DNA of 42,260 bases from an uncultured Nitrososphaerota archaeon (lineage in GTDB: Archaea; Asgardarchaeota; Njordarchaeia; Njordarchaeales; Panguiarchaeaceae). The position numbers were made by a program, and so were the translations under genes. Where the stretch lies: positions 67,916 to 110,175 of the forward strand of contig CAZWPQ010000003.1 in assembly GCA_964636085.1 (NCBI GenBank), read 5' to 3'. Below, piece after piece: positions 33,192 through 34,619 of the stretch (the stretch's first letter is position 1; each line of letters opens with the position of its first letter). The notes below the pieces were generated by a model. The model was given only the letters and a program-made list of their open reading frames with translations, ran no database searches and was not told where the DNA came from.

Positions 33192-34619
33192 CTGGGAAGT
33201 AGAAGTATTTTTGATAGGCAGACATACATAAGCTGGTGGAGTCAAGACAAGATACATAATACAAGTGTATATCTAATTGTGGATGAGCCATTAGGCTACC
33301 TAGCAGCGATTTCTCTAGTGGCTGTTGGTTATGGCAAAATATATATAATAGGATCCAGATTTGTGAAAGATTTCAAAATCTTGTTCTATGACTATACTGG
33401 AAATTTCCCCGAGGGGGTCTCCGAATTTGTAGATATTTATCTGGGCAGATATTTAATGGACTACGGCATAGAGATTATGCCAGTAACGATAAACTTGGTA
33501 TCAGATAGGGCGTTAAATTTAATAAAATGGATAATACATGACGACGACAATGAGAGAAAAATTTTACTAGACTTTTCGAATAGCCCAACAGTCAAATTTT
33601 ATGTCAGAAAACTCGCAAGGATGTTAGAATTAGATACATATATCGTATCTCTCGCAGGGGACCTTCGTTTTTACTGTTTCCCACGAGAATATAGTGAGGA
33701 TACTTCCGATATGCACAGAAAAATATATATAAGAGAACCCCCAGGATTTCCAGAGATATTTTCTAGAGCCGTAAAAGCTCAATCTGGCATAAGACTTGAC
33801 GAGCATCTATATTTGATGGCTAGTGGACTTGCATGTGGAGAGATTACCATGAATATACAGGACGAACAGTATGAAATCCACACACCAACACGAGAGATAG
33901 TATACCCATTTGAGGGACTACCCAAGTTCAGGAGAACCACTAGCTATTTTAGAAAAGTAGCGATTGTTGGATGTGGTGCTTTGGGCACATTTTATTCTAT
34001 TCAAATGGCTCTACTGATAAACATGAGGTTGCTTCGTGTAAAAGAGGTGGTATTTATAGATCCAGACGAGATAGAACTCGTAAATTTTAATAGACAGGTA
34101 TTATATTGGGGCAATACTGTTAAAGAGCCGAAGGCATATGTGATAGCGGATAGATTCCAGAGAATGGTATATGACCCCGTGATAACATACTACCATGAGG
34201 CCCGTTTTTCTGAAGTAAAGGATCGCTTGAGAGATGTTGATTTAATTGTGGAGGGAGTCGATACATGGGAGGCTAGAAAGGAGATAGCAAGATTTGCCAT
34301 AAAAAACAAGATACCGCTTATTACATCGGGAGTTGAGCTTCTTGCTGGGCATGAAACATATTACCAACCAAATAGGACATATTGTCCATTTCATTCCATA
34401 TCGTTAGATAAAAAAGTAGATCCCGTCAATACTACTGGATGCCTAAGGATAGATCCCTCCGTTATATTTACCAACATCACTATAGCCTCATCTGCAATAC
34501 TGAACTCCTTAGTGACCCAAGAACCGCTCAATGGCGTGATGTATTATAGTCTTAGGGGTGAATATGGTATCTATAAACGCTTTAGGCTCGAGAAATACAC
34601 GGGGAGCTGTGGGGACTAG
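33192..34619 (+). CDS. E1/ThiF-family activating enzyme with tandem degenerate and active adenylation domains
   Basis: C-terminal half: KVAIVGCGALG, DPDEIELVNFNRQ, K and GVDTWEAR. The frame is open upstream of the called GTG 33279 to CTG 33192, adding FDRQTYISWWSQDKIHNTSVYLIV; GGAGTGA RBS precedes the CTG. Confidence 0.82.
   Translation: MGSRSIFDRQTYISWWSQDKIHNTSVYLIVDEPLGYLAAISLVAVGYGKIYIIGSRFVKDFKILFYDYTGNFPEGVSEFVDIYLGRYLMDYGIEIMPVTINLVSDRALNLIKWIIHDDDNERKILLDFSNSPTVKFYVRKLARMLELDTYIVSLAGDLRFYCFPREYSEDTSDMHRKIYIREPPGFPEIFSRAVKAQSGIRLDEHLYLMASGLACGEITMNIQDEQYEIHTPTREIVYPFEGLPKFRRTTSYFRKVAIVGCGALGTFYSIQMALLINMRLLRVKEVVFIDPDEIELVNFNRQVLYWGNTVKEPKAYVIADRFQRMVYDPVITYYHEARFSEVKDRLRDVDLIVEGVDTWEARKEIARFAIKNKIPLITSGVELLAGHETYYQPNRTYCPFHSISLDKKVDPVNTTGCLRIDPSVIFTNITIASSAILNSLVTQEPLNGVMYYSLRGEYGIYKRFRLEKYTGSCGD

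Follow-up and report, generated by a model that had tools for sequence, protein, structure and literature searches.

Within a stretch of 42,260 nucleotides of archaeal DNA (contig CAZWPQ010000003.1, here referred to as the window), the segment 33192-34619 most probably encodes a single-chain enzyme of 475 residues of the E1 type, the type that activates ubiquitin and ubiquitin-like proteins (Ubl). The chain comprises two domains of the ThiF type packed as a pseudodimer, an inactive adenylation domain (IAD) followed by an active adenylation domain (AAD), and its translation appears to begin at a CTG codon.

In the mechanism proposed for this enzyme, the CTG start at 33192 would be served by a GTGAT ribosome-binding box located inside the end of the preceding JAB peptidase gene, and Arg9 of the dead half would complete the single ATP site by analogy with MoeB Arg14, Uba1 and BilD Arg9. 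The JAB peptidase would trim the tail of a protein of 153 residues; the E1 would adenylate the C-terminal Gly of this trimmed small protein, which is encoded two genes upstream, carry it as a thioester on Cys417 of a short, mobile crossover loop and pass it on to a Cys of a 462-residue candidate for the conjugating enzyme (E2).

Homologues were sought among 5.8 billion proteins, which yielded ten close relatives (50-71% identity, all from archaeal metagenome-assembled genomes) and one remote relative (P0013, 26%). The DNA at the junction of the JAB and E1 genes was read in seven lineages, namely the window and six relatives (L001, L003, L006, L007, L008, and L009). The features of the E1 gene are the following:

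33192..34619, + strand: full E1 gene as re-read, 475 codons and a TAG stop (34617-34619), reading P0001
33192..33194, + strand: proposed CTG start codon, aligned with the start codons (TTG, GTG or ATG) that relatives use and adjoining the TAG stop of the JAB gene
33180..33187, + strand: Shine-Dalgarno-like GGAGTGAT (core GTGAT), within the 3' end of the JAB gene and 4 nucleotides before the CTG
33192..33923, + strand: IAD, residues 1-244, from the modelled Rossmann pattern, structural alignments and an hhalign match of 98.9%
33210..33221, + strand: F-D-R-Q motif, in which Arg9 (33216-33218) is the proposed arginine finger
33279..33299, + strand: degenerate nucleotide loop V-D-E-P-L-G-Y replacing GxGxxG; its GTG is the annotated start, in all likelihood wrongly called
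33924..34616, + strand: AAD, residues 245-475, from Pfam ThiF, PDB sequence matches and alignments to SAE2 and UBA3
33969..33986, + strand: ATP-binding loop G-C-G-A-L-G (G260-G265), invariant in the family including the remote P0013
34083..34097, + strand: N-F-N-R-Q (N298-Q302), the Arg/Gln motif with which ThiF-type enzymes bind phosphate, from conservation
34383..34442, + strand: short crossover loop from Cys398 (T-Y-C-P-F-H) to Cys417 (T-T-G-C-L)
34605..34616, + strand: conserved C-terminal S-C-G-D (S-C-G-H in P0010), nearly invariant to the last residue

Predicted fold of the chain and its two adenylation domains

The AlphaFold2 model of the whole chain, built on a 12-row alignment, has a predicted template modelling score (pTM) of 0.83 and a mean predicted local distance difference test (pLDDT) of 76.8, and displays the strand-helix alternation of Rossmann-type folds in both halves. 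The pLDDT is mostly 88-93 over residues 20-160; the stretches of low confidence are 1-13, 167-183 and 381-422, the last as expected of a mobile loop. The best matches of the model in the PDB according to Foldseek are UBA7, UBA6 and Uba1. On re-alignment with VIA, residues 2-475 of the model superpose on these three enzymes with Z 27-28 (405-428 residues aligned, root-mean-square deviation 3.3-4.2) at a structural identity of about 15-18%. Bacterial BilD (8tyz_A and 8tz0_B) is likewise matched along the whole chain (Z 27.3, 356-369 residues aligned, model 4-475 against chain 7-493), whereas the one-domain subunits SAE2 and UBA3 cover only residues 245-475 (Z ~20). As Uba1 and BilD align with the whole chain and SAE2 and UBA3 with half of it, the predicted chain has the arrangement of a pseudodimer, inactive plus active. 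The first-pass annotation, made from the sequence alone, had claimed a UBA1-like union of an inactive and an active half in a chain of about 475 residues, and had pointed to superposition on Uba1 of a model started at 33192 and to the fold of the N-terminal half as the means to judge it. The model supports that claim: the superposition extends over residues 2-475, and the N-terminal half is predicted to adopt a ThiF-type Rossmann fold packed on the active half.

The N-terminal half has no Gly-rich loop, no D-x-D and no equivalent of NRQ, and keeps the FDRQ segment, in which Arg9 is invariant in all seven lineages. FDRQ aligns with the Y-D-R-Q of a wider family of double-ThiF proteins, where R and Q are invariant and among the very few N-half positions that are so. 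The persistence of this R/Q pair in a domain that is dead in other respects is consistent with selection for an arginine finger. The Gly-rich loop had been said to be replaced by DEPLG, and hhalign agrees, aligning D-E-P-L-G-Y with the wider family's G-s-G-x-L-A loop.

A first profile of the N-terminal half included the remote P0013, which may have driven its matches, and the link was therefore re-tested without this row. The close-family profile then aligned with 18 N-halves of the wider family at an hhalign probability of 98.9% (E 1.6e-17, 185 columns), with FDRQ on YDRQ. The wider-family N-halves match Pfam ThiF by themselves (E 1e-12 to 1e-22), and their profile matches MoeB (E 4.9e-27), ThiF and Uba4 as well as the inactive domains of UBA6, UBA7, SAE1, and NAE1. 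Judged by these profile comparisons, the N-terminal half is a strongly decayed ThiF domain, homologous to the others and not merely alike in fold.

The search of the first N-half profile, with P0013, against a library of 1.84 billion representatives returned 211 proteins of the wider family (clusters at 50% identity). Most of its members have 440-530 residues, with R-Y-D-R-Q-x-R-I-x-G-W-D-Q-x-K-L at the N-terminus and, around residue 240, an intact second loop, GAGALG. The labels seen include Woesearchaeota, Nanobdellota, Thermoplasmatota and Thermodesulfobacteriota; the family is met in DPANN-labelled and other archaea and in some bacteria. Among three genomic contexts, the E1 is immediately preceded by a JAB gene in two (L010 and L012), and in the third the JAB gene lies one gene away (L011). 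The same loci (L010 3982-6434, L011 3356-6326, and L012 2146-6440) have large uncharacterised neighbours.

The C-terminal half is recognised by Pfam ThiF (PF00899) over residues 255-406 with 97.8 bits against a cut-off of 28.1. The match begins only at position 22 of the Pfam model and this half therefore has no YxRQ segment of its own, in keeping with the earlier description of a second half with intact GCGALG and NRQ and no obvious motif of that kind; the motifs named at that stage (DEPLG, GCGALG, NFNRQ, D..EAR, and TTGCLR) are all located in the translation. Sequence matches of the C-terminal half in the PDB include UBA6, ThiF and SAE2, with ThiF, MoeB and MccB among the best. Residues N298, N300, R301, Q302, D290, D292, and K314 are invariant in the family and D357 nearly so; their roles in the ATP/Mg site are presumably those of their counterparts in MoeB and ThiF.

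Cysteines C398 and C417 of the crossover loop are invariant in the family alignment and H401 is nearly invariant. Only ~20 residues separate the two cysteines, with no helical insertion modelled between them, and a separate CYS/SCCH domain (~80 residues, helical) in this loop is absent from both the model and the alignment. Cys417, invariant and located on the crossover loop, is a reasonable candidate for the thioester cysteine; its position would correspond to those of ThiF Cys184, MoeB Cys187 and UBA5 Cys250. By analogy with the zinc site of BilD, C398, H401, Cys473 and the terminal D/H may constitute an altered metal site.

A number of results weigh against this reading of the gene. The pLDDT falls below 50 at residues 1-13 (including Arg9) and 381-422 (including both loop cysteines), so that the model does not position two key catalytic elements, and the alignment behind it has 12 rows only. 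The N-terminal half has no Pfam match (the copy used may or may not include BilD_N, PF27312), its close-family profile found no match among PDB sequences up to E 10, and its hhalign comparison with the C-terminal half of the same protein is not significant (probability 2.4%), though the register is right (DEPLGY opposite GCGALG). Its homology to ThiF is therefore transitive, via one intermediate family. Where BilD, SAE2 and UBA3 have a zinc site of four Cys, the pattern here is C-x2-H ... C-x-D/H. Initiation at CTG is rare in archaea, and here the CTG start is proposed from sequence comparison. As to the E2 candidate, a Foldseek search of the PDB with its whole-protein model gave no match (best E 0.1), and a wide search with VIA matched only the central helical bundle (Z up to 8.9) and no UBC, the C-terminal 170 residues being effectively unprobed; without a UBC-like match, a full E1-E2 cascade is not established.

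The same data bear on a different function for the gene, that of a two-domain ThiF/MoeB-type enzyme for sulfur transfer or for adenylation of a small molecule or peptide, in which the N-terminal half would be a structural or regulatory remnant and Arg9 would have no role as an arginine finger. ThiF, MoeB and MccB do stand among the top sequence matches of the active half, the short Cys loop is closer to ThiF and MoeB than to canonical E1s, and the E2 candidate is unproven. This function is nevertheless improbable, given that the genes for a JAB peptidase and for a small protein with a trimmable Gly end are kept together in a tightly conserved cassette, that no rhodanese, MoaD/MoaE or ThiS/ThiG genes occur in the neighbourhood, that the whole-chain fold matches Ubl-activating E1s and that the RQ segment has been selectively kept in an otherwise decayed N-terminal half.

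Reading frame and start of translation

The annotated open reading frame starts at the GTG of 33279 and ends at 34619 (446 codons, as given in the list of open reading frames and in the window's own protein record, P0002). The same frame is open for 29 codons 5' of this GTG, back to 33192, right after the TAG of the JAB gene (33189-33191), and this extension translates as L-G-S-R-S-I-F-D-R-Q-T-Y-I-S-W-W-S-Q-D-K... ATG, GTG and TTG do not occur within the 29 codons, which leaves the CTG at 33192 as the only start compatible with the homologues.

Six of the close relatives (P0004, P0005, P0007, P0008, P0010, and P0011; 470-483 residues) begin with M-G-S-x3-F-D-R-Q exactly at the L-G-S-R-S-I-F-D-R-Q of the window, three others are called short like P0002, and a fourth, P0012, is a fragment of 291 residues. 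The codon aligned with these starts is TTG in L001, GTG in L006, ATG in L007 and CTG in the window, L003, L008, and L009 (CTG start sites: window 33189-33194; L003 686-691; L008 5875-5877; L009 5926-5928). The short-called members for which DNA was read are exactly those with CTG, and the public calls P0002, P0003, P0006 and P0009 lose the N-terminus. With CTG taken as the start, the proteins of all seven lineages have 465-483 residues and align end to end; the six-frame match in the window's own genome spans residues 1-475 of the E1.

Over the 28 codons after the start, the proportion of nonsynonymous differences (pN) is 0.12-0.30 and that of synonymous differences (pS) 0.48-0.93, the latter often saturated. 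Since pN is well below pS, the stretch is protein-coding in the CTG lineages too and under purifying selection. The 29 in-frame codons that the first-pass annotation had added upstream of the called start are thus an open frame that is conserved in homologues, and the FDRQ segment within them is kept both in homologue proteins and in the DNA of the lineages.

Each of the four CTG lineages has the GTGAT box 4-7 nucleotides 5' of the CTG. Since the frame in which the JAB gene ends is a different one in L008, the box is conserved as DNA and not as JAB protein; it is presumably complementary to the 3' end of archaeal 16S rRNA. A quick tree groups three of the CTG lineages (window, L003, and L008) in one clade and puts L009 on a branch of its own. 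The CTG state is therefore present on two or more branches of the family, among proteins 54-71% identical, and L003-L005 come from three separate metagenomes. Its occurrence on separate branches indicates a long-lived trait, as opposed to a lesion of recent date or an error of assembly.

On the strength of these comparisons it is proposed that translation starts at CTG 33192 and that the annotated product of 446 residues is truncated, without the arginine finger and the first strand. Gene callers truncate exactly the members with a CTG start, with the result that the arginine finger is lost and the domain escapes annotation. Other genes in the genomes of the CTG lineages may be mis-started likewise.

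It is very unlikely that the annotation is correct and that the 29 codons are an untranslated spacer ahead of a 446-residue protein started at GTG 33279. GTG is a canonical start, selected by gene callers in P0002 and likewise in P0003, and canonical start codons are missing from the extension; however, changes in the 29 codons are mostly synonymous and leave the protein sequence conserved, homologues place canonical starts exactly at the position of the CTG, the called GTG corresponds to a Val or Ala codon inside strand 1 of the domain, and a start there would remove the only invariant motif in common with the wider family, R and Q. Also very unlikely is a read-through of the TAG at 33189 to give a JAB-E1 fusion like BubCD of Type I Bub operons, with CTG as an ordinary Leu codon: JAB and E1 share a frame with nothing between stop and CTG, the frame is also shared in L001, L003, L007 and L009 (five of the seven lineages with the window) and bacterial JAB-E1 fusions exist (10.1101/2024.11.21.623953), but the two frames differ in L006 and L008, the JAB stop varies between lineages (TAG, TAA or TGA) and cannot be explained by one recoding, the E1 start is a normal one in three lineages, a Shine-Dalgarno-like box precedes the CTG, and a search for longer fused relatives (833-2375 residues) found none, which is weak evidence.

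The cassette and its neighbourhood

The single-chain E1 started at CTG is the last of four co-oriented genes at 30540-34619, which encode the 153-residue protein, the 462-residue protein, the JAB peptidase and the E1, in the order of BilA-B-C-D. The three genes that precede the E1 are:

32361..33191, + strand: JAB/JAMM peptidase gene, 276 codons, directly upstream of the E1 and in the same frame
30976..32364, + strand: E2 candidate of 462 residues, from motif and position only
30540..31001, + strand: Ubl candidate of 153 residues, from its C-terminal motif

The product of the JAB gene matches Pfam Prok-JAB at E 6.7e-5, below the cut-off, with the H-x-H-x7-S-x2-D motif intact in the translation, and the gene lies directly 5' of the E1 in every close-family locus examined. 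The 462-residue family has an invariant H-P-S-(V/I)-x5-G-x-R-x-(I/V)-C-L-G near the C-terminus; no match to the protein was obtained in Pfam (whole chain and six C-terminal pieces), in a profile search of PDB sequences or in an Atlas search. Its model comprises a C-terminal strand meander with helices, and N-terminal 260 residues (strands and a long helical bundle) without a known relative.

Proteins of the 153-residue family share an invariant G-(R/H)-V-G at the C-terminal end, after which come 0-10 variable residues (L006 stops at the Gly), and the Ubl candidate has no family match in Pfam. In L008 (~3290-3300) its translation contains a run of X, from N bases in the record. The terminal R-V-G is presumably the same as that of mature UFM1, and this end, together with the UBA5-like short Cys loop of the E1, may point to a UFM1/UBA5-like flavour.

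In each of the five related loci whose flanking DNA is long enough, synteny extends over the cassette and the genes around it. The recurring neighbours are genes for an FG-GAP/Zn-ribbon protein, deoC, an amidohydrolase and a wyosine radical-SAM protein, in lineages that are 50-71% identical. A sporadic, defence-island or mobile setting was not encountered at these loci, and the locus is vertically conserved. A block at 20679-29701 (the FG-GAP/Zn-ribbon protein of 573 residues, then proteins of 204, 446, and 177 residues) accompanies the Ubl cassette in all related loci. The deoC-like gene (29726-30403) is on the + strand in the window and on the - strand in L001 and L006-L009, which may be due to a local inversion.

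The E1 was found in all five genomes of the window's genus and in none of 36 other relatives searched (E<=1e-20; many of these genomes are incomplete). Its close homologues carry the NCBI labels Njordarchaeota, Korarchaeota and Thermoproteota, and the taxonomic placement of Njordarchaeales is known to be conflicting (PMC10307638).

Relation to known E1 systems

Single-chain E1s with one dead and one live domain were regarded as a eukaryotic hallmark until the structures of bacterial BilD appeared in 2023-24. BilD consists of an IAD, an AAD and a helical CYS domain of ~80 residues (bioRxiv 10.1101/2023.09.26.559546, Chambers et al.; structures 8TYZ and 8TZ0), has one active site, which Arg9 of the IAD completes, with Cys417 as the catalytic cysteine, and has a zinc site formed by two Cys of the crossover loop together with two close to the C-terminus (10.1101/2023.09.26.559546). 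Since a minimal IAD-AAD chain had already been solved for BilD, the architecture found in the window is not a first: of the minimal UBA1-like pseudodimer put forward in the first-pass annotation, the architecture is supported, but as a kind it is not new. The archaeal E1s UbaA and the Caldiarchaeum E1 are described as one-domain enzymes in the literature searched, where, within its incomplete coverage, no description of an archaeal IAD-AAD E1 was found.

The layout is now met in an archaeal lineage labelled partly as Asgard, in a more stripped-down form and as part of a vertically inherited cassette. There is an outside chance that the window's E1 represents an archaeal branch of the line leading to the eukaryotic canonical E1, in which case the cis-fused pseudodimer would be of prokaryotic origin, would predate the CYS/SCCH and UFD insertions and would serve a UFM1-like modifier ended in R-V-G and coupled, both physically and in function, to a neighbouring putative ESCRT-III/Vps4-like operon. 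The cassette would then be a second, independent Ubl-ESCRT module. The labelling of close homologues as Njordarchaeales, an Asgard lineage, is relevant to such an ancestry. Together, the window's family and the larger double-ThiF/JAB family are testable material on the stepwise building of the canonical E1.

The BilD enzymes of Type I/II BilABCD operons resemble the window's E1 in having an IAD-AAD chain without FCCH or UFD and an N-terminal Arg9 in the dead half, and their operons have the same order of small Gly-ended protein, Cys protein, JAB and E1. They differ in their CYS domain of ~80 residues, in place of which the window's E1 has a conserved Cys on a loop of ~20 residues, and in a four-Cys zinc site, as opposed to C-x2-H ... 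C-x-D/H. The host here is an archaeon, and the locus is conserved vertically among housekeeping and putative ESCRT-like genes and not in a defence island. The PADLOC profile of BilD gives a weak match (E 7.3e-6) to the AAD only, weaker than those of several Cap2 E1-E2 profiles. Within the Bil-like set of four genes, JAB and E1 are recognised, and the Ubl and E2 are candidates named from their motifs.

Among eukaryotic enzymes, Uba1, UBA6 and UBA7 (one chain) and NAE1-UBA3 and SAE1-SAE2 (two chains) have the IAD-AAD pseudodimer that is predicted for the window's E1, with one active site to which the inactive half contributes an arginine, the role proposed here for Arg9. The window's E1 is less than half the size of the canonical eukaryotic E1s and has neither FCCH, SCCH/CYS, four-helix bundle nor UFD. 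ThiF, MoeB, UBA5 and archaeal UbaA share the motifs of the AAD and a candidate Cys on a short crossover loop without a separate domain; these are homodimers with two active sites, whereas the window's E1 carries its partner subunit in the same chain, in an inactivated form. Bub systems (6E/DUF6527) comprise a homodimeric JAB-E1 or E2-E1 fusion without a catalytic Cys and a DUF6527 protease (10.1101/2024.11.21.623953). In contrast, the window's E1 has an IAD and conserved loop cysteines, a stop codon separates JAB from E1, and no match to DUF6527 was found among the neighbour proteins scanned.

The wider, unnamed double-ThiF family shares the two-domain layout, the length, the JAB neighbour and homologous N-halves with the window's family, at ~26% identity to the window's E1. 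Its N-half is still recognisable by Pfam ThiF and in some members retains GxGxxG, whereas that of the window's family has decayed beyond direct detection. The window's E1 is set apart from the known IAD-AAD E1s by the absence of a CYS domain, an apparently altered metal site, an N-terminal half beyond direct detection, a proposed CTG start and a vertically inherited archaeal locus.

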